From the IMG/VR virus record IMGVR_UViG_3300045988_155993: a stretch of DNA of 46,294 bases; one strand, given 5' to 3'. This stretch comes from a virus. Below the pieces are notes generated by a model. That model made no database searches, had not been told where the DNA came from, and saw only the letters and a list, made by a program, of their open reading frames with translations. Positions within the stretch are counted from its first letter, which is position 1, and the number at the start of each line of letters is the position of its first letter. The position numbers and the translations under genes were made by a program. This document shows positions 4,305-18,283 of this stretch, one piece after another.

Positions 4305-7300
4305 ATGGACAATCAAACGGATATTGGTGTTGTTATTTCAACAAAGATTGACAAAGCAATACAAAGTGCAAATCTTTTGAACAAAAAATTAAAAGAAACT
4401 CAAAAGAGTATGAAAAAGCTTGGTGTTGATAGTTCAAGTATTAACAGATCATTATCCAAAGTAAACACTTCTAAAATCAAAAACTTGTCTAGTGATGCAA
4501 AAAGAGCTAGTTCAAGCATGGGCGGTTTGTCAAAACAAATAAAAGAAGCTACAAACGGTTTACATAAAGGTTTTGACCTAGGAAAAATGTATTTCATGTT
4601 TAATACATTAAAACCAGTCATGCAAGGGATTGGTGGCATTATTGAAAAATCGGTTGATTATACTGAAACAGTCAACCTATTCGCTAATGCAATGGGCGAT
4701 TTAACAAGTCAAGCAATGACTTTCCAAGATAAATTGTCCGAAGCTTTCGGAACAGCTCAGACATCTATGATGAATTATCAAGCAACATACAAAAATATGT
4801 TGAGTGCATTAGGTGGTATGAGCAATGACGTTACAGAGAAATTAAGCGAGACATTAACATTGATGTCTATTGACTATGCTTCTCTTTACAACGTTGAAAT
4901 GGAGAATAGTGCTCAAAAGTTCCAAAGTGCATTATCAAGACAAGTTAGACCTATTCGTAGTACGAGCGGTTACGATATTACTCAAAATGTATTGAGCGAT
5001 TATTTACAACAAGCAGGTATCTACGATAAAGAAGTAAGTGATTTAAGTGAAATTGAAAAAAGATTATTAATTATATATTCATTGCAACAACAAATGGCTA
5101 ACTCTAGTGCATTTGGAGATTTTGCAAGAACAATTGAGAGTCCTGCCAACCAATTAAGGGTACTTCAAGAACAAATTCAAGAAGTAGGTCGTTGGTTAGG
5201 CTCTGTATTCTATGGAACTATTGGTAAGGTTCTTCCTTATATCAATGGTTTTATTATGGCTATTAAAGAAGCTGTTAAATGGCTTGCTTTATTTTTAGGC
5301 TATAGCGTAGAAGATTATGCAAGTAGCGGACAAACTTATTTTGACCAAGCTTTTGGAGACTCTGCCGACTCAATAGATGGTGTAGGGGATAGTGTTAGTG
5401 ATGTCAATGATAAGTTGGATGATACTAAAAAGAAAACAAAAGAAATCAAAGAGCAATTATCAGGACTTGATGAATTAAATGTCATTACTTCTACAAGTGA
5501 AAGTTCAAGTGGAAATGGTAGTTCAAGCGATAGTGGAGGTTTAGGAAGTGCAGGTGTTGACCCTAGACTTTTAAAGGCTATCGGTGAATATGACGATATG
5601 CTCGACAAAGTTAGAATGAAAGCTAACGATATTCGGGATAGATTAATTGAGTGGGGAAAAATCGTAGGTGGGTATGTAAACGAAAATATCTTTAAGCCTA
5701 TGGAATTTTCTTGGAATAAATACGGTGAGTCAATTCTTTCTAGGTTTCAAAGCGGATTTTCTAATTTTGGTTCAATCGTAGAAGATGCTTTCGGCATTGT
5801 TTTAAAACGAGTGCCTGAAAGTGTTGAGTCGGTAAGTTCATTATTCTTTTCTCTTTTAGATGATCTTGCGATTGCCTTTGATGGTATCTCTAAATTATTT
5901 AAAGGAATTTGGGATAACGGAGGAAATGTTTTATTTGAACAACTCATTAGATTAGCTAATGCAATCATTGATTTAGGAACATCTATTAATGATAACTTTG
6001 TTAAGCCTATTCTTAAATGGTTTGCAGATGATATTGCACCGACATTAGGTAAGGTTTTAGGTAAGATTTTAGGCTTATTTGGTAGTCTTGTAGGTTTACT
6101 TGCGGACGTTACAAAAGCTTTTGCAGAAAACAAAAATGCGGTTTCTCTCGTATGTACAGCCCTTACAGCTATGTTCACTTTATACAAAGGAGCAAAAGTA
6201 ATTGTATGGGTAAAAGGATGGATAGGTGTGTTTAAGGATTTCAAGAGTGAATTAGGACTTGTAAAAGGCACTCTATCATTGCTTGGTGAAACTAAATTTG
6301 GCGGTAAGATAGTAAATACATTTAAAGATTTGACATCTTCCGCTAAATCTACTGGAAGTACATTTAAAGATGCTAAAAACATCTTATCTAGTTTATGGAC
6401 CACTCTTACAGCAGGAAGCACACCTATGAGCAACACAGCTTCTATCTTTGGAAAATTAAGAGATATGGCATCAACTTCTACTGGTGCTGTTGGCTTATTT
6501 GCTAAAGGGTTATCTGCATTGACTTCTCCTTTAGGGTTGACGGTTGTAGGAATTACTGCTGTATCAGGTGTCTTAATGTATCTTACAAGAGATTACAACG
6601 GTACAACTGGTGCAACCGCTGAATACATCAATAAACTTAAAGATCAGCAAAAAGAATTGGATAACGTTACTAAAAAGACACAAGAAAATCAAAAAGTAAC
6701 AAGAGATAAAATTGCTACTATAGACAGCGAATACTATGCTGTTGAAAGAGCAATTTCTAAACTTGATGAAATGGTGGACTCTAACGGTAAAGTTAATGGT
6801 TCACAAGAAGTGGCTCAAACTTTAATAGATCAAATCAATTCAAAACTTGGTACTAACATCACTATTCAAGATGGTGTTATCAAGAATTGGAAAGATGAAA
6901 AAACAGCATTAGACCAAACTATTGAGTCTATGAAGTTGAAAGCCAAAGTAGAAGCTCATTATGATGCTTATGTCAAAGCTTTAAAACAAGAAAAAGATTT
7001 AAGTGTTGCTCTATCTACCGCAAAAAGGGAATTAGCTAGTAATACTGAAAAATTAAATCAAAAGAAAGAACGATTTGCTGAATTGACTAAAAAAGGCGCA
7101 TCTATGACAAGTTCAGAAGTTGCTGAATATAAAAAATTAGCAGGTCAAATTAGCGATTTAACAACTACTAATGCCCAACTTGAAAAAAATGTTAAGAGTG
7201 CACAAAAAGCTTTTGATACCAATAAGAAATCTATCACCGACTACGATAAGGCTGTTAAAGCCACAAGCGGTGATGTAAAAGATATGGCAAAAAGTATTGT

Positions 7301-12360: not shown

Positions 12361-14202
12361 TTGGCGACATTGCAAATACCTAAAATTACTTATAAGGATA
12401 AAAAGGATTTTCAAACGCAAGGGCAGGATGATGAATACAAGATTTGTGCAAAAGATATGAACGAAATCAAGTCGGTTTTTAATAACAGCGCAGAGGCAAT
12501 TGAAAAAGGATTGAACACTATTGATGAAAATATCAAGAAAACAAATGATGCACGTGATCTAGCAAAACAGTACATGGAACAAGCTTCACAAGATGCTTTG
12601 GCAATCAACGGTACAGCAAATGGTATTATTGAAAAAGTAACTACCGAAGATGGATATGCTCAAATCAATGATAGTTCAAATAGAAGATTGAACAATATGA
12701 TTATCAGAGGAAACAGTGAACAAATTCAAACTACTGGTAAGAATTTATTATTAATATACAAACAAACACAAATTGTAAATGGTATCACTTTGACATATGA
12801 TAATGACAATAAAGTAATCATTGCAAATGGAACAGCAACCTCACGGACAAATATAGCTCTTGGAGTATTTGATTTCAAGAAAGGCATAACTTATAAGTTT
12901 GTAGGATGCCCTAAAGGTGGTAGTGTTGACACATTATATCATATCGAGCCTAACGGGGGATTGTTTTTTGACATTGGTAATGGCGCAACTTACACGCCAT
13001 CTGAAGATAAGTTAAACACACTTATTTATTTTGTTGTAACTAAAGGCGTTGTATTAAATAATTTGGTTATTAAGCCAATGATTACAACAGATTTAAACGT
13101 AACATATGATGATTATGAGCCATATACTGGTGGCAAACCTTCTCCTTCACCTGAATATCCACAAGAAATTAAAGCGGTTAATGAGTTAAGTGGAGTAATG
13201 AGCGGAAAGAATTTACTAAAACCACATGATAGTTATCCTAGAACTGGTTATGGAATTACACTTAATTTAATGAACGATGGTATTCATGTAAACGGCAAAT
13301 GTACTGCTTCAATTTGGCGTACATTTATATATTCTGATACTTTGCAAGCAGGAACATATTATATCAATGGAATAAAAGGCGCATCAAATTCACACTATCA
13401 AGTCGTATTATATAAAAACGATGTAATTATTGACTATATCACTACTAAAAATTTCAAATTAGTATTAAAAGAAAAAGCAAAAATTGAACTTTCGTTATAT
13501 GTATATCCTGGATATGGAACTTTTAATGATTTAGTTTTACCCTATATGATTTGTAGGAACGAAAATGATTTGTATTTGTACACTCCATATCAAGGTCAAT
13601 CGCTTTTAAACTACACTCTTCAAAACCCTCTTTATAAGCTAAGTGATGTATATGATTACATTGATGTTGATAAAAGTAAGATTGTAAGGAATGTTGGTGT
13701 TGTAACTTTCGATGGAAGTGATGATGAAGAAATCAGTAAGGTTAGCAATACAAATATCAATGTGTATCAGTTCAGTAGAGCGATTAATTCAATTGAAAAA
13801 TATGCTAAATATGCTAAATGTGATAGCTTTCAAACCGCAACAGCATATGCGAATGATTTACTGAGAAATGATAATAAAATATATGCAGCCACTGTTAGTT
13901 GCTATTTATCTTTTGACAAAATGAATACGGTTGAAAAATTAAAAGCCTATTTACAACAAAACCCAATTACAGTTTACTATCAACTTGCAACACCTACAGA
14001 AGAAGATATACCTGCAGAGTTGTTATCACAACTCAAGGAGCTTCAAACGTATGTTACAACGACAAATGTAATGTTTGAGGCGAGTGATGTTTATCCAATT
14101 GTTGATTTAGAATACATTGCAGATACGAAAACATACATTGACAACAAATTTAAGGAACTTGCAGAAGTGATTATAACAAGCACAAGTGAGGAGGAATTAT
14201 AA
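12361..14202 (+). CDS. Putative receptor-binding / baseplate protein
   Basis: 613 aa with a TTG start. It is the last large structural gene before the lysis cassette, and its C-terminus is beta-rich. Confidence 0.45.
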   Translation: MATLQIPKITYKDKKDFQTQGQDDEYKICAKDMNEIKSVFNNSAEAIEKGLNTIDENIKKTNDARDLAKQYMEQASQDALAINGTANGIIEKVTTEDGYAQINDSSNRRLNNMIIRGNSEQIQTTGKNLLLIYKQTQIVNGITLTYDNDNKVIIANGTATSRTNIALGVFDFKKGITYKFVGCPKGGSVDTLYHIEPNGGLFFDIGNGATYTPSEDKLNTLIYFVVTKGVVLNNLVIKPMITTDLNVTYDDYEPYTGGKPSPSPEYPQEIKAVNELSGVMSGKNLLKPHDSYPRTGYGITLNLMNDGIHVNGKCTASIWRTFIYSDTLQAGTYYINGIKGASNSHYQVVLYKNDVIIDYITTKNFKLVLKEKAKIELSLYVYPGYGTFNDLVLPYMICRNENDLYLYTPYQGQSLLNYTLQNPLYKLSDVYDYIDVDKSKIVRNVGVVTFDGSDDEEISKVSNTNINVYQFSRAINSIEKYAKYAKCDSFQTATAYANDLLRNDNKIYAATVSCYLSFDKMNTVEKLKAYLQQNPITVYYQLATPTEEDIPAELLSQLKELQTYVTTTNVMFEASDVYPIVDLEYIADTKTYIDNKFKELAEVIITSTSEEEL

Positions 14203-14444
14203 TGGCATTTAATTTACATGGCTTTGTAATGAAAACATTAGAAGGAATGAAAATTAACACTGATGAATACCAAGTAAGACAATATGCTCTTAAATGGTAT
14301 TCAAAAGGTGTTTTAAAAGATGAAGATTTAGAAACCATTGATGAATGGTATGAAGTTGAGGATGTTCCAACTGAATTGGATCCAATTGAAGATACTGATA
14401 TTGTAGAAGGTGAGGAAAATGAAGAAGATGGAAAAAAGTTTTAA
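14202..14444 (+). CDS. XkdX-like small phage protein
   Basis: 80 aa (MAFNLHGFVMKTLEGMKINTDEYQVRQYALKWY...) matching the XkdX family pattern. It directly precedes the holin gene. Confidence 0.5.
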   Translation: MAFNLHGFVMKTLEGMKINTDEYQVRQYALKWYSKGVLKDEDLETIDEWYEVEDVPTELDPIEDTDIVEGEENEEDGKKF

Positions 14445-14829
14445 TACGTTAGTAGCAATCATTGCTACTTTTTTTACTTATTTATTTGGTAGTTGGGATT
14501 TAGCTTTACAAGTTTTAATTGTATTTATGATTTTAGATTATGTTACTGGTGTATTATACGCATTTATCAGCAATCAATTAAACAGTGAAGTTGGTTCCAA
14601 AGGTTTAGTTAAAAAGCTAATGATTTTAGTTGTATTAATCATTGGTGTAATGTTAGATCGTATTTTAGGTACTGGAAATTGGGTGTTCAGAACGCTTGTA
14701 TGTTATTTCTATATTGCAAATGAGGGGATTAGTTTATTAGAAAATGTAGCAAACATTGGAATTCCAATTCCTAATAAGATTAGAAACGCATTAGAACAAC
14801 TAAATAAAGATGATGAAGAGAGCGAATAG
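14419..14829 (+). CDS. Holin (phage_holin_4_1 / TIGR01593-type)
   Basis: Hydrophobic helices (FNTLVAIIATFFTYLFGSW, VLIVFMILDYVTGVLYAF, LMILVVLIIGVML) followed by a charged C-terminus. The ORF opens at GTG 14410, but the ATG at 14419 or 14428 is the likelier start. Confidence 0.75.
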   Translation: MKKMEKSFNTLVAIIATFFTYLFGSWDLALQVLIVFMILDYVTGVLYAFISNQLNSEVGSKGLVKKLMILVVLIIGVMLDRILGTGNWVFRTLVCYFYIANEGISLLENVANIGIPIPNKIRNALEQLNKDDEESE

Positions 14830-14860
14830 CTCTCTTTTATATTACAAGGAGGAGAAAACA

Positions 14861-15337
14861 ATGAAATTTAAAAGAGCTTTTGAATTAATGAAAAATGGAG
14901 CAAAAATTAAGCTCCTTTCATGGGGTGGTTATTGGTATTGGGATGATGAAAAGAAAACAGTAATCATGCATACAAAAGATGGAAAAGAAATGGATATTAG
15001 AGAAACTGAAAGAGTTATCTATACGTTATCTAATATTCTTGATGATGGATGGGTTCTCGCTGATGAAAAAAACTGTCCCGAACTAGGTGGAGAAGCTACT
15101 TTTGGTTTTGATGAAGCTATCAAATATCTAAAAAGAGGAATGAAGCTTGCTAGAAAAGGTTGGAACGGTAAAGGAATTTTTATTCATTTATGTGAAACAG
15201 ATGCAACAACAAATCCTTTTGTTTGTATAGATTCATCTAATTTACAAACTGATAATCTAGATGCAAAGAAAAATATTGTACCTTGGGCACCATCACAAAC
15301 AGATATGTTAGCGGATGACTGGGTATTTTTTGAATAG
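14861..15337 (+). CDS. Tandem DUF2829 protein (Tad2-like anti-Thoeris sponge family)
   Basis: ATG follows the RBS AGGAGG. The C-terminal half matches the DUF2829 hallmark (FGFDEAIKYLKRGMKLARKGWNGKG ... IVPWAPSQTDMLADDWVFF). The N-terminal half is a degenerate second copy (FKRAFELMKNGAKIKLLSWGG...DDGWVL). Confidence 0.7.
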   Translation: MKFKRAFELMKNGAKIKLLSWGGYWYWDDEKKTVIMHTKDGKEMDIRETERVIYTLSNILDDGWVLADEKNCPELGGEATFGFDEAIKYLKRGMKLARKGWNGKGIFIHLCETDATTNPFVCIDSSNLQTDNLDAKKNIVPWAPSQTDMLADDWVFFE

Positions 15338-15350
15338 GAGGATGTTATAA

Positions 15351-15647
15351 ATGAAACTATTCATTAGTCAACCAATGGCAGGAAAAACAGATAAAGAAAT
15401 CCTAGATGAAAGAGAAAGGGTGCTATGCAATGTAAAAGAATTATTTCCTGATAAAGAAATTGAAGTGATTGATTCGTTCTTTGATGGTGAGCCTAAAACT
15501 CCATTATGGTATTTAGGCGAGTCCGTTAAGTTATTAGGTCAAGCTGACATTGCTTATTTCTGCAAGGATTGGGAAAAGTATCGAGGATGTTGTATTGAAC
15601 ATGAATGTTGTGTTCGGTATTCAATTAAACACGTGGAAGAAAATTAA
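15351..15647 (+). CDS. DUF4406 protein (nucleoside 2-deoxyribosyltransferase-like fold)
   Basis: 98 aa with the family pattern MKLFISQPMAGKTD at the N-terminus and DIAYFCKDWEKYRGCCIEHECCVRY near the C-terminus. Confidence 0.6.
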   Translation: MKLFISQPMAGKTDKEILDERERVLCNVKELFPDKEIEVIDSFFDGEPKTPLWYLGESVKLLGQADIAYFCKDWEKYRGCCIEHECCVRYSIKHVEEN

Positions 15648-15665
15648 TTAAGGAGGTAATGAAAT

Positions 15666-16670
15666 ATGAGTTTAATTGTAGGTTCAGCTAGAATTGATGA
15701 AAACGGTAATCTAAAAAATGGAAAGGCTGGCGATCAAACAGGAAAAGAAGTCTCAACACAAGCATACTATACACATAAAAAAGGTTGGTACATTTTTCGA
15801 CCAAAAAGTGTAGCTCATGCAAATGCTCTTGCTACTGCTATGAAACAAGCTTGTGACAATAATAAAATTGGATATGATCAAAATGAAAGAAACGGAGTTA
15901 TCACTCAATTAAAAAAATATGGTTCATTAGATAAAATTGCTACAGCTACTGAATGTGACTGTTCTTCACTTGTTAGAGCTTGTATCATTCAAGCTACTGG
16001 CAAAGACGTTGGGAATATCACAACAGCTAATGAAGCTAGTGTATTAGAAGCAAGTGGCTTGTTTGAAGCTAAAAAATCTGTTACTGGTGAAGGAATGCTA
16101 TACAATGGTGATATTCTTGTAACTAAAACTAAAGGTCATACAGTTATTGTAGTAAGCGGTAGAGCAAGAAGTACAGCCACTACTTCCAATACTTCTACAG
16201 CAACTAAATCATATCTTTCTAAAGGCGATAAAGGTAATGGTGTTAAAACAATGCAAACAATGTTGATTGCTTGTGGATATTCTTGCGGATCGTATGGAGC
16301 CGATGGAGATTTCGGAAGTGGCTCTGATAAAGCGTTAAGAAAATTCCAAGGAGATTATGGTTTAACTGTAGATGGAAAATACGGGTCAAAATCTAAAGCA
16401 AAATTAGAGTCTGTTTACAATCAAAAGAAATCTTCTAAATCTTTAGGAACATATAAAGTTACAGCTAAATCAGGCTTATACGTAAGAGAAGGTGCAGGGA
16501 CTAATTACGATATTGTTCCTAAAAACAAATTAACTAAAAATGCACAAGAACATGCTAAATCAAACGGAGCATTAAGATATGGTACTCGTGTCACAGTAAA
16601 AGAGTGGAAAAATGGTTTTGCTCGTATTCCTAGTGGTTGGGTAAGTGGGGACTATTTGAAAAAAGTGTAA
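15666..16670 (+). CDS. Endolysin (N-terminal Cys/His peptidase-like catalytic domain, PG_binding_1-like repeat, C-terminal SH3b)
   Basis: RBS AAGGAGG. Candidate catalytic Cys (ECDCSS) and His (KGHTVIV) about 57 aa apart, a DGDFGSGSDKALRKFQGDYGLTVDGKYG peptidoglycan-binding motif, and a C-terminal SH3b-like segment. Exact catalytic family not resolved. Confidence 0.7.
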   Translation: MSLIVGSARIDENGNLKNGKAGDQTGKEVSTQAYYTHKKGWYIFRPKSVAHANALATAMKQACDNNKIGYDQNERNGVITQLKKYGSLDKIATATECDCSSLVRACIIQATGKDVGNITTANEASVLEASGLFEAKKSVTGEGMLYNGDILVTKTKGHTVIVVSGRARSTATTSNTSTATKSYLSKGDKGNGVKTMQTMLIACGYSCGSYGADGDFGSGSDKALRKFQGDYGLTVDGKYGSKSKAKLESVYNQKKSSKSLGTYKVTAKSGLYVREGAGTNYDIVPKNKLTKNAQEHAKSNGALRYGTRVTVKEWKNGFARIPSGWVSGDYLKKV

Positions 16671-16784
16671 ATTGATGTATAATATATATGCACATTCATT
16701 GTATTAGTTAATAAAAAAAGCAAAAAGTAATATTATCTATTCTTCAAAAAATGTTTCAACAACTTTATTTATTAGCTAAACAGA

Positions 16785-16822
16785 AAGACCTACTCATTAA
16801 TTTGGGTAGGTTCTTTTTTTTA
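16785..16822 (+). terminator. Rho-independent terminator of the lysis operon
   Basis: Stem GACCTAC/GTAGGTTC followed by a T8 run. Confidence 0.6.
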
Positions 16823-16835
16823 TGCTATAAAATCT

Positions 16836-17170
16836 AGCGGGTTGGCAAAAAGTTGGCAAAAATATGGCAAATAAAAAACAACCCAAAAAACAATAAAGAA
16901 TAGGAGGTGCTATGCTTTGTGAAATAAAAATATAGAAATGAAAAAAGCCTTGATAAAATCAAGACTTTTTAATTTGAATTTGTGAATTATTTACAAGCTT
17001 CTTCGATAGCAACAGCAACTGCAACAGTAGCTCCAACCATTGGGTTGTTACCCCCATACCAAAAAAACACATAAAAAACGTGACTGTATCATAGGTGTAT
17101 CATAGGTGGGTTTCTAAAAATCGACTAAAAGGTTGGCAATTTGGGTGGCAAAAAAGGACACCTATTGATG
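16836..17170. promoter_or_regulatory. attP-like region with integrase arm-type direct repeats
   Basis: Five (G/T)TGGCAAA repeats (16843, 16853, 16863, 17132, 17145), a tandem GTATCATAGGTG pair at 17083-17106, and a bidirectional hairpin at 16936-16975. Confidence 0.45.
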
Positions 17171-17174
17171 CCCT

Positions 17175-18283
17175 TTAATTGTATAAGCTTGATGTGTTGA
17201 AATTAGCTGTTTTTTGTTGATCCAGTTCGGTGTAAATATCTGCTGTTGTTTGATAGCTCGAATGTCCTGCAAGGGATTGAGCAACCTTAATATCAACACC
17301 TTTGTTATAAAGTTGAGTTATAAACATATGTCTTAACATATGATAGTGAAATGGTATTCCTAATTTTTCAGAAGTACGATTAAGAGACTTACGAATTTTT
17401 TGAGATTTTACATAATTCATATCTCTACCAAAAATAACATATTCACTTTCAGGGTACTTCCTAAAATGATTTTCTAAAATATCATGTAGCTCATTTGAAA
17501 TAGGGAGTTCACGATAACTTGATTCTGATTTCAAAGTTGTTATTTTTGTTACTCCTCCAATTGTTTGAATTTGTTTATTGATTGACATTACATTGTTCAC
17601 TAAATCTATATCTTCTCTCTTTAAAGCTATACATTCACTTATTCTTATGCCCGTATATAAGCCGATATAGAGCGCAACTATATAATTATCACTTTCAAGT
17701 ACATTGTTTTTTACGGGATGTTTATATCTTTCAATAAACTTATTAAATTCTTCTAGTGTAATAGTTTTTTTCTTACTTTGTGTCTTAATCCCATTAACCG
17801 TTTTAATTTTACATATGGTTTTCTTGAAATATAGTTATTGTTATATGCGAAAGTAAAAACTCCGTTGATGATTTTATAAATACCTTCAATTGTTTGTTTT
17901 GTGTTGACTTTAGCTAATTCGTTCAATGTATTTTGAATATATTCGTAATCAATCTTTGCAATATCACATTTCCCTATAGTATCTTTCAAATGTTTGTTAT
18001 AGACGGATTTTCTAACAAATTTAGTAGTTTCTTTTGTAAAAGGATCATTAACAATATATATTTGAAACACATCATCAAACGTGCGCTTTTCGGTTTTCAA
18101 ATGTATATTCTCTTTTAACCTTGTTTTTGTTTCTTCTTCAAATCTTTCGGCATCTACTTTCCTAGCAAAACCGCTTTTAGTTATCCATTTTGTTTTTCCT
18201 GTTATGTGTTCTTTATATTTAATCAAAACTTCATAAACATAGCCATTTTTGGCTTTTTTAGACTCTCTTTTTCTTATTGACAT
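17175..18283 (-). pseudogene. int: Tyrosine integrase split by a frameshift in an A7 tract (an A8 tract would give one ~368-aa ORF)
   Basis: The N-terminal ORF (17753..18283) and the C-terminal catalytic ORF (17175..17600, with HxxR and the nucleophile Tyr in ...TADIYTELDQ) differ in frame by one base. A T7 run on the plus strand at 17764-17770 lies at the junction, and hand translation with +1 A restores the middle segment (...ISECIALKREDIDL...). Confidence 0.75.

Follow-up and report, generated by a model that had tools for sequence, protein, structure and literature searches.

The viral DNA of IMG/VR record IMGVR_UViG_3300045988_155993, 46,294 nucleotides long (nt; the window), encodes between its holin and endolysin genes a protein of 158 amino acids (aa) that carries two Tad2 folds in a single chain. 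This tandem protein belongs to the Tad2 superfamily, in which its two-domain architecture is distinct, widespread and uncharacterised. Tad2 is one of the three main families of phage sponges, and all of its solved or tested members are, to our knowledge, single-domain homotetramers. The tandem protein is probably (roughly 60%) a fused, pseudo-dimeric sponge of the Tad2 family for Thoeris-type signals, carried as a late-operon accessory cassette by a temperate phage of gut Clostridia. Its C-domain would supply canonical half-sites for ADP-ribose signals made by Toll/interleukin-1 receptor (TIR) proteins, such as 3' cyclic ADP-ribose (3'cADPR). The N-domain, a minimal conserved Tad2 fold with about half of the contact residues replaced, would stand in for the second protomer. 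Two chains may assemble into a particle resembling the Tad2 tetramer, with the N- and C-domains acting as separate protomers, and such an arrangement would yield asymmetric or non-equivalent pockets. The suggestion of a pseudo-dimer follows from the solved Tad2 pockets, which are built from two protomers of a homotetramer.

The open reading frame (ORF) of the tandem protein lies on the forward strand exactly where an initial annotation, made from the sequence of the window, had placed it. Homologs begin at the same MKF or MNF, which identifies 14861 as the true start; an in-frame ATG at 14810 was rejected because it overlaps the holin gene and the homologs begin later. The initial annotation read two DUF2829 repeats in the chain, and this holds at the level of the fold but not for each half by profile search. 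Taken by itself, the sequence establishes only one DUF2829 copy, that of the C-half. The whole protein scores 82 bits against PF11195 (profile length 73, gathering score 25 bits). When the halves are searched separately, as the annotation had proposed, the C-half (aa 71-158) reaches 71.9 bits (E 6e-20, profile positions 3-72 of 73), but the N-half (aa 1-70) only 16 bits (E 0.019, profile positions 1-31 only), which is below the cut-off. Three lines of evidence nevertheless identify the N-half as a Tad2 domain and bear out its description as a diverged copy. A sub-threshold PF11195 match recurs in 27 of 28 N-halves of the family (best E 6.5e-5). Profiles of the two domains align in hhalign with a probability of 85% in local mode and 78% in global mode over 62 columns, pairing FxxAFxxMKxGxKVKLPSWGG with FxEAIKYLKRGxKVxRKGWNG and DEWxIAD with EDWxFxE. 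The AlphaFold2 (AF2) model of the tandem protein, with a predicted local distance difference test score (pLDDT) of 89.7, displays the same order of helices and strands (H-E-E-E-E-H-E) in both halves.

The model contains the N-terminal helix, antiparallel sheet, short C-terminal helix and final strand of the Tad2 fold. In a Foldseek search of the full model against the PDB, the best 24 matches are all Tad2 or AcrIIA7 structures, with target-normalised template modelling (TM) scores of 0.76-0.79 and 30-35% identity to the SPO1, Mod, Hgm and Spt Tad2 proteins. All sequence matches in the PDB (AcrIIA7 9kzr, SPO1 Tad2 8sme/8wje, HgmTad2 8kbi, SptTad2 8wjd and ModTad2 9eib/8v3e) fall within aa 60-158, mainly in the C-domain starting near aa 81, and leave the N-domain uncovered. 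When the N-half is searched as a profile, Tad2 turns up in the PDB only at E of about 0.5 over aa 1-23, together with a spurious nanobody match. The BFVD fold search returned no full-length superposition (TMq at most 0.41), and no NCBIfam model was found for the tandem protein. The motifs quoted in the initial annotation are present, except that the first pattern was written one position short: F83 to K91 reads F-x2-A-x4-K rather than F-x2-A-x3-K.

The two domains differ in their ligand-contact positions. SPO1 Tad2 is a homotetramer in which each pocket lies between two protomers and is built by the loops beta1-beta2 and beta4-alpha3 together with helix alpha3; the signal 1''-3' glycocyclic ADP-ribose (gcADPR) is contacted there by W25, N26, W73 and D79, plus T78, S76 and further contacts through water (10.1101/2023.05.01.538930). 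In HgmTad2, the gcADPR contacts are W21, N22, G23, W87, L88, S90, T92 and D93 (10.1101/2023.11.15.567273). Alignment places W101, N102, G103, W142, S145, T147 and D148 of the C-domain at the equivalent positions. Among 44 full-length homologs, no substitution is seen at W101, G103, W142, S145 or D148 and almost none at N102, while T147 is kept by the majority. The claim that the C-terminal copy retains the hallmarks of gcADPR binding is therefore supported by a complete aligned contact set, which makes the C-domain a putative canonical half-site. The equivalents in the N-domain are W21, G22, G23, Y54, S57 and N58, which retain only the first tryptophan and the glycine: in the hhalign alignment N is replaced by G22, W by Y54, T by S57 and D by N58, and the serine position is lost. 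The N-domain thus does not carry the gcADPR-contact set.

Loss of the canonical contacts has not been accompanied by a loss of constraint. Column conservation, expressed as the mean maximum residue frequency, is 0.78 in the N-domain, 0.78-0.79 in the C-core and 0.83 in the linker. The linker (aa 71-82) is the most conserved segment of the protein, with N71, L75 and F81 invariant and P73, G76, G77 and T80 nearly so. Invariant residues of the N-domain include W21, G23, W25, W27, I46, R47, T49, Y54, T55 and W64, and its conserved DIRET loop holds D45, I46, R47 and T49. The conserved positions lie on those parts of the fold from which the Tad2 pocket is built: the beta1-beta2 loop (P19, S20, W21, G22, G23), the beta4-alpha3 loop (D45, I46, R47, T49) and helix alpha3 (Y54, T55, N58). 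The ratio of nonsynonymous to synonymous divergence (dN/dS) of the N-domain is about 0.1-0.6, and purifying selection acts on both halves. A conservation equal to that of the C-core, this range of dN/dS and the location of invariant residues on pocket elements indicate that the N-domain is not decaying.

The fusion had been considered unusual, but it belongs to a large recurrent family. PHROG 1048 covers all 158 aa (E 9.5e-45). A protein search gave 2,552 matches, and most of the 120 best are 46-93% identical to the query over 99-100% of its length. With a profile of the N-type domain, 758 cluster representatives (clustered at 50% identity) are matched at E <= 1e-3 and 416 at E <= 1e-10. Most of these proteins have 150-175 aa and carry the domain at residues 1-72; a second stretch is often matched too. 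The loci in IMG/VR number at least 575; of the best 80, to which locus counts out of 80 refer below, nearly all span residues 1-156 or 1-158. In species-representative genomes, at least 282 loci encode a relative, nearly all of them in gut Clostridia and sometimes with two copies per genome; the hosts include Blautia, Dorea, Coprococcus, Eubacterium, Faecalimonas, Anaerobutyricum, Roseburia, Ruminococcus and Oscillospiraceae. Full-length homologs also occur in the cultured Dorea phage DO134P1 and Ruminococcus phage phiRg507T2_3, where both are annotated as hypothetical. At the nucleotide level, a megablast search of positions 14000-17000 against the phage collection gave no matches, and relatives were found by tblastn only. 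The N-type domain appears in other architectures as well: in triple DUF2829 proteins (P0125, P0121), in a protein with two short domains and no canonical one (P0206) and in a fusion with dUTPase (P0205). An abundant form with 998 member sequences (P0047) carries an unrelated N-terminal extension of 85 aa that has no Pfam match.

The two domain types are also found as separate genes. In Staphylococcus phage SpaA1 and the Bacillus phages BceA1 and phi4J1, two DUF2829 genes, P60 and P61, directly adjoin each other (in SpaA1 at L097:2277-2782). The product of P60, 80 aa long, combines the N-type WGGYW motif with a degenerate C-terminal motif, PAQAYQAD, and that of P61 (87 aa) is canonical, with GWNGK ... 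WLASQTDMLANDW. The N-domain profile matches P60 with a probability of 96.7% and P61 with 2.6%; the corresponding values for the C-domain profile are 97.9% and 99.4%. The same order of a degenerate and a canonical domain in the two-gene and the fused form argues for hetero-assembly, with the two domain types working together.

Within the fused form, the domains recombine independently. Compared with the window protein, P0009 shares 94% identity in the N-domain and 22% in the C-domain insertion (aa 112-138), and P0020, P0025 and P0055 share 87-91% (90% in P0020) and 8%, respectively. P0007 shows 63% identity in the N-domain and 96-100% across the whole C-domain. Synonymous divergence (dS) between the window and locus L019 is 0.08 in the N-part and 0.99 in the C-part, and between the window and locus L015 it is 0.49 and 0.16. 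These comparisons indicate that the N- and C-parts have different histories. Across the family, the insertion itself comes in at least five discrete types of sequence. In HgmTad2, the corresponding insertion region forms a second pocket and is described by the authors as highly variable among Tad2 homologs (10.1101/2023.11.15.567273). A sharp mosaic boundary is also seen at the accessory slot of one locus (L022:5513-6517), where an endolysin gene 93% identical to that of the window follows a tandem gene of only 64% identity, with no 98-aa gene in between.

The altered but conserved N-domain admits another explanation, which we consider unlikely but worth retaining: the protein could be a sponge with a new N-domain pocket, formed by R47, T49, Y54 and N58, for a second signal that is bound besides gcADPR or instead of it. 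Candidate signals, on this equally tentative reading, would be histidine-ADP-ribose (His-ADPR), N7-cADPR, a cyclic mononucleotide, a cyclic dinucleotide or an undescribed signal. The plasticity of Tad2 ligands and the existence of second pockets at other interfaces favor such a pocket, as does the clustering of the invariant polar and aromatic N-domain residues on pocket-forming loops. The exchange of the C-domain insertion among at least five types likewise looks like diversification of specificity. The conservation of the N-domain could, however, equally reflect a structural role at an interface. The known second pocket of HgmTad2, which binds cyclic dinucleotides through R31, L36, S47, F70 and N85 within a long beta2-beta5 insertion of 41 aa (10.1101/2023.11.15.567273), is not conserved: R31, L36 and N85 correspond to C111, T116 and V140 in the tandem protein, and its insertion measures 27 aa. 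The binding of other cyclic nucleotides, which the initial annotation had raised for some family members, can therefore not be inferred for this protein.

The gene is an accessory inside the late lysis cassette. Pfam matches identify the holin upstream and the endolysin downstream (Table 1). An identical protein is present in several human-gut assemblies in the same arrangement of holin, tandem gene, 98-aa gene and endolysin, and in integrated copies (L001, L003-L006) no further prophage gene stands between the endolysin and the host genes. The placement had been regarded as unusual, but late-operon slots prove to be the norm for the family. In phiRg507T2_3, the holin gp18 is followed by the homolog gp19, the endolysin gp20 and the integrase gp21; the holin and endolysin families differ from those of the window, which makes the slot between holin and endolysin a recurrent one. 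Another member (P0115, in 174 blocks of the collection index) lies in a myovirus head module between capsid and connector genes, and P0037 directly follows holin and endolysin. In the 80 IMG/VR loci, the commonest upstream neighbors are minor capsid protein 2 (9), DUF6275 (8), Phage_holin_4_1 (4) and Mu-F (4). The commonest downstream neighbors are scaffold proteins (6-7), endolysin domains (PG_binding_1 in six loci, GH25 in four, Amidase_3 in two, and ELLD, Amidase_2 and M15_4 once each), VG64 (5), DUF6275 (4) and DUF4406 (4). DUF6275 (PF19791) thus recurs on both sides of the tandem gene, upstream in 8 of 73 and downstream in 4 of 65 cases (e.g. L015:4643-4993, L020:3614-3868 and L030:5836-6102), and one upstream neighbor of a tandem gene bears an Acb2/Tad1 hairpin domain. 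Together, these two observations suggest small clusters of accessory or anti-defence genes.

Expression signals in the window agree with membership in the late operon. Gaps of 31 nt between the holin stop and the tandem gene and of 13 nt between the tandem gene and the 98-aa gene, the absence of promoter-like sites upstream and the position of the only strong terminator, 3' of the endolysin gene, indicate co-transcription with holin and endolysin. A promoter of its own, which the initial annotation had suggested, was rejected: the gap measures 31 nt, promoter-like matches in the region (34) are at the level of shuffled sequences (28.6 +/- 4.7), and none of them lies in 14830-14860. We infer the late timing of the gene from this operon structure only. 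A compositional signature of a moron is likewise not seen: GC content stays at 0.30-0.35 in the cassette and on either side of it. The hairpin at the holin stop codon accompanies this holin wherever the latter occurs: loci L001, L019 and L025 share it, and in L078 (4880-5010) the stem is different but still pairs. Downstream of the hairpin the sequence varies: the tandem gene follows in the window, an extra ORF of 88 aa comes first in L019, and L025 has other sequence. We read the hairpin as a conserved junction ahead of a variable accessory slot; it may act as a weak attenuator or an mRNA-stability element.

The tandem gene is followed by a 98-aa gene whose product resembles DUF4406. The window protein itself scores below the gathering threshold of DUF4406 (PF14359; 13.5 bits against 22 bits, E 0.099), and the family is matched by all ten of its ten aligned relatives (best E 2.1e-6). 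It also matches PHROG 355 ('nucleoside 2-deoxyribosyltransferase') with E 5e-15. Searches of the PDB with the single sequence and with a profile gave only chance matches, such as designed TIM barrels, and the search of NCBIfam yielded nothing beyond chance (12.7 bits where the cut-off is 157). The initial annotation proposed that the two genes may form an anti-signalling unit. A homolog of the 98-aa protein (36-98% identity) adjoins the tandem gene in 13 of the 80 loci. In L039, L040, L051 and L066 the pair sits in the head module, in the order minor capsid protein 2, tandem gene, 98-aa homolog and scaffold protein, and in L066 a Prp protease gene comes after the 98-aa homolog. Adjacency in both the lysis cassette and the head module suggests that the pair moves as a cassette between late slots. 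The homolog is, however, absent from the other 67 loci, and in L016-L018 (about 5491-5544) the 98-aa gene is cut down to its first 17-18 codons next to tandem genes 92-93% identical to that of the window, a deletion scar which shows that the partner is dispensable. There is thus some support for a link between the two genes, which is recurrent but facultative.

Table 1. Features of the tandem Tad2-fold gene and its surroundings in the window (positions counted from the first nucleotide of the window)
Feature	Position	Strand	Basis or remark
Holin (Phage_holin_4_1)	14410..14829	+	PF05105, 141 bits; PHROG 199 holin
9-bp hairpin over the holin stop codon, with an interrupted U-rich tract after it	14815..14837	+	-13.3 kcal/mol, z -3.2
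Ribosome-binding site AAGGAGGAG of the tandem gene	14847..14855	+	read directly from the sequence
Tandem Tad2-fold protein gene	14861..15337	+	158 aa plus stop; PF11195 82 bits in 2 stretches; PHROG 1048
N-domain, aa 1-70	14861..15070	+	minimal Tad2 fold without insertion, altered ligand positions, DIRET loop
Inter-domain linker, aa 71-82, NCPELGGxATFxF	15071..15106	+	column conservation
C-domain, aa 83-158	15107..15334	+	canonical Tad2; PF11195; phmmer alignments to 8sme, 8kbi, 8wjd, 9eib, 8v3e
Variable insertion of the C-domain, aa 112-138	15194..15274	+	per-region identities across the family
98-aa DUF4406-like protein (nucleoside 2-deoxyribosyltransferase-like superfamily)	15351..15647	+	PHROG 355; family DUF4406 matches
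Endolysin (ELLD + PG_binding_1 + SH3_3), last gene of the late operon	15666..16670	+	Pfam 145.6, 51 and 26.5 bits
Intrinsic terminator closing the late operon, 10-bp stem and T run	16787..16812	+	terminator scan

Two further observations concern the flanks of the cassette. An acidic ORF of 80 aa (14202-14444), which overlaps the annotated holin start by 35 nt, is called in related contigs and has no Pfam or PHROG matches. Beyond the terminator, on the reverse strand (17175-18283), the tyrosine integrase is split into an N-terminal ORF of 176 aa and a catalytic ORF of 141 aa, whose frames meet across an A-rich run (...RHKVRKKLLH* against ...QSKKKTITLEEF...). The split is a frameshift, arising from a pseudogene or an assembly error, and it recurs in the gene calls of contig L002.

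A protein produced from the late operon would fit the way in which Thoeris is triggered, as the known triggers are late proteins. Staphylococcal and streptococcal Thoeris cyclases recognize major capsid proteins (PMC12578639), and side tail fibre proteins set the sensitivity of Pseudomonas phages to type II Thoeris (10.64898/2026.06.04.730250). The tandem protein would be made together with the capsid and tail proteins that trigger the system, and would then soak up the Thoeris-type signals. The accessory behavior of the gene supports a sponge as well: its slots are variable, it is shuffled as a cassette, and one of its relatives neighbors an Acb2/Tad1-domain protein.

Several points weigh against a sponge of this kind. 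The geometry between the domains is predicted with moderate confidence only (predicted TM score, pTM, of the AF2 monomer 0.65). The N-domain, with G22, Y54 and N58, has no equivalents of N26, W73 and D79 of SPO1 Tad2, and some or all pockets may be inactive for gcADPR if two canonical half-sites are needed. Sponges are expected early in infection (10.1101/2023.05.01.538930). Tad2 ligands vary and include 3'cADPR, His-ADPR, N7-cADPR, cyclic dinucleotides and cyclic cytidine and uridine monophosphates (cCMP, cUMP) (10.1101/2025.08.24.671296); with so wide a range, 3'cADPR is a candidate ligand of the tandem protein. The N-type motif is absent from the 18 Tad2 homologs assayed in the same study, and also from 244 GWNGK-containing sequences in one part of the 2023 supplement. 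Among the titles and abstracts listed by a literature search on Tad2, none deals with domain architecture.

The positions of the family within head-morphogenesis and lysis modules could also point to a protein of the virion or of its assembly (for instance a decoration of the neck or head, or a chaperone) or to a lysis accessory, either of which would merely share the Tad2 fold. This explanation was also prompted by the Tad2-like fold of the neck decoration protein of phage 812, but the similarity to that protein is remote, at 10% identity. The gene behaves as an accessory, found in different slots and missing or variable in close relatives, its C-domain conserves the full set of gcADPR contacts, and no transmembrane or signal features are seen in the sequence, all of which makes such a function very unlikely. 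An even smaller chance is left to an anti-CRISPR resembling AcrIIA7 and directed at type II-A Cas9. The best sequence matches in the PDB are indeed annotated as AcrIIA7 (9kzr_A, E 1.3e-12; 8kbi_A, E 7.7e-11), in the C-domain only, and DUF2829 was, as cited in 10.1101/2023.05.01.538930 and 10.1101/2023.11.15.567273, first reported as AcrIIA7 in a functional metagenomic screen. Li et al., however, could not reproduce the inhibition of Cas9 by HgmTad2 and its homologs in vitro or in vivo, and concluded that HgmTad2 inhibits Thoeris and the cyclic-oligonucleotide-based antiphage signalling system (CBASS), not Cas9 (10.1101/2023.11.15.567273). A role as a lysis regulator (antiholin) was rejected, as the protein has no membrane segment and the family also occupies non-lysis slots.

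A bolder extension of the sponge proposal combines the fused and the split forms, and we put it forward as a doubtful possibility. The fusion and the P60/P61 pair might represent an evolved hetero-oligomeric Tad2, in which the degenerate and the canonical domain would jointly form asymmetric pockets, involving N-domain residues such as R47 and T49, that would accept two chemically different signals. The insertion would then be a specificity cassette exchanged by recombination among gut phages, and delivery of the protein would coincide with that of the capsid and tail triggers, at times co-mobilised with a nucleotide-processing enzyme of the DUF4406 type.

If the proposed function is true, the fusion of a canonical with a degenerate domain and its split counterpart would show a symmetric sponge turning asymmetric, and ligand specificities not seen before could come to light in the tandem family. 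Prophages of the dominant Clostridia of the human gut carry the family in abundance, and in these hosts signalling-based immunity and phage counter-defence have barely been studied. Searches for anti-defence genes that are restricted to early regions or to dedicated islands would miss a family encoded in late operons. The split-gene counterpart, the independent recombination of the domains and the division of the insertion into at least five discrete types are new here.

Among known systems, the tandem architecture is already recognized as an orthologous group, PHROG 1048, which carries no functional annotation and whose name mentions neither the two domains nor the link to Tad2. The founding sponge, SPO1 Tad2 (gp34.65; PDB 8SME, 8SMF, 8SMG), shares its fold with the C-domain (TM about 0.76-0.79, 30-35% identity). 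Its W25, N26, W73, S76, T78 and D79 correspond to W101, N102, W142, S145, T147 and D148 of the C-domain, and its insertion is of similar size (about 24-27 aa). SPO1 Tad2 is, however, a single domain of 89 aa that forms a homotetramer, whereas the window protein has a degenerate Tad2 domain fused in front through a conserved linker of 12 aa, and its gene comes from the late lysis cassette of a temperate phage of gut Clostridia. HgmTad2/AcrIIA7 (PDB 8KBI-8KBM, 9KZR) and ModTad2 (9EIB, 8V3E) are also single-domain proteins, unlike the tandem protein, and the cyclic-dinucleotide pocket of HgmTad2 (R31, S47, F70, N85; 41-aa insertion) is not retained in it. The closest counterparts in cultured phages, phiRg507T2_3 gp19 and DO134P1_00011, are full-length tandem homologs of 49.7% and 54% identity. 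The former occupies the same position between holin and endolysin, followed by the integrase, the latter lies in a head module, and both are without a DUF4406-like partner. The P60 and P61 proteins of SpaA1, BceA1 and phi4J1 repeat the order and the domain types of the tandem protein, but as two polypeptides with overlapping stop and start codons, with a middle region in P60 that is longer than in the N-domain of the window, and near the genome end rather than in the lysis cassette.

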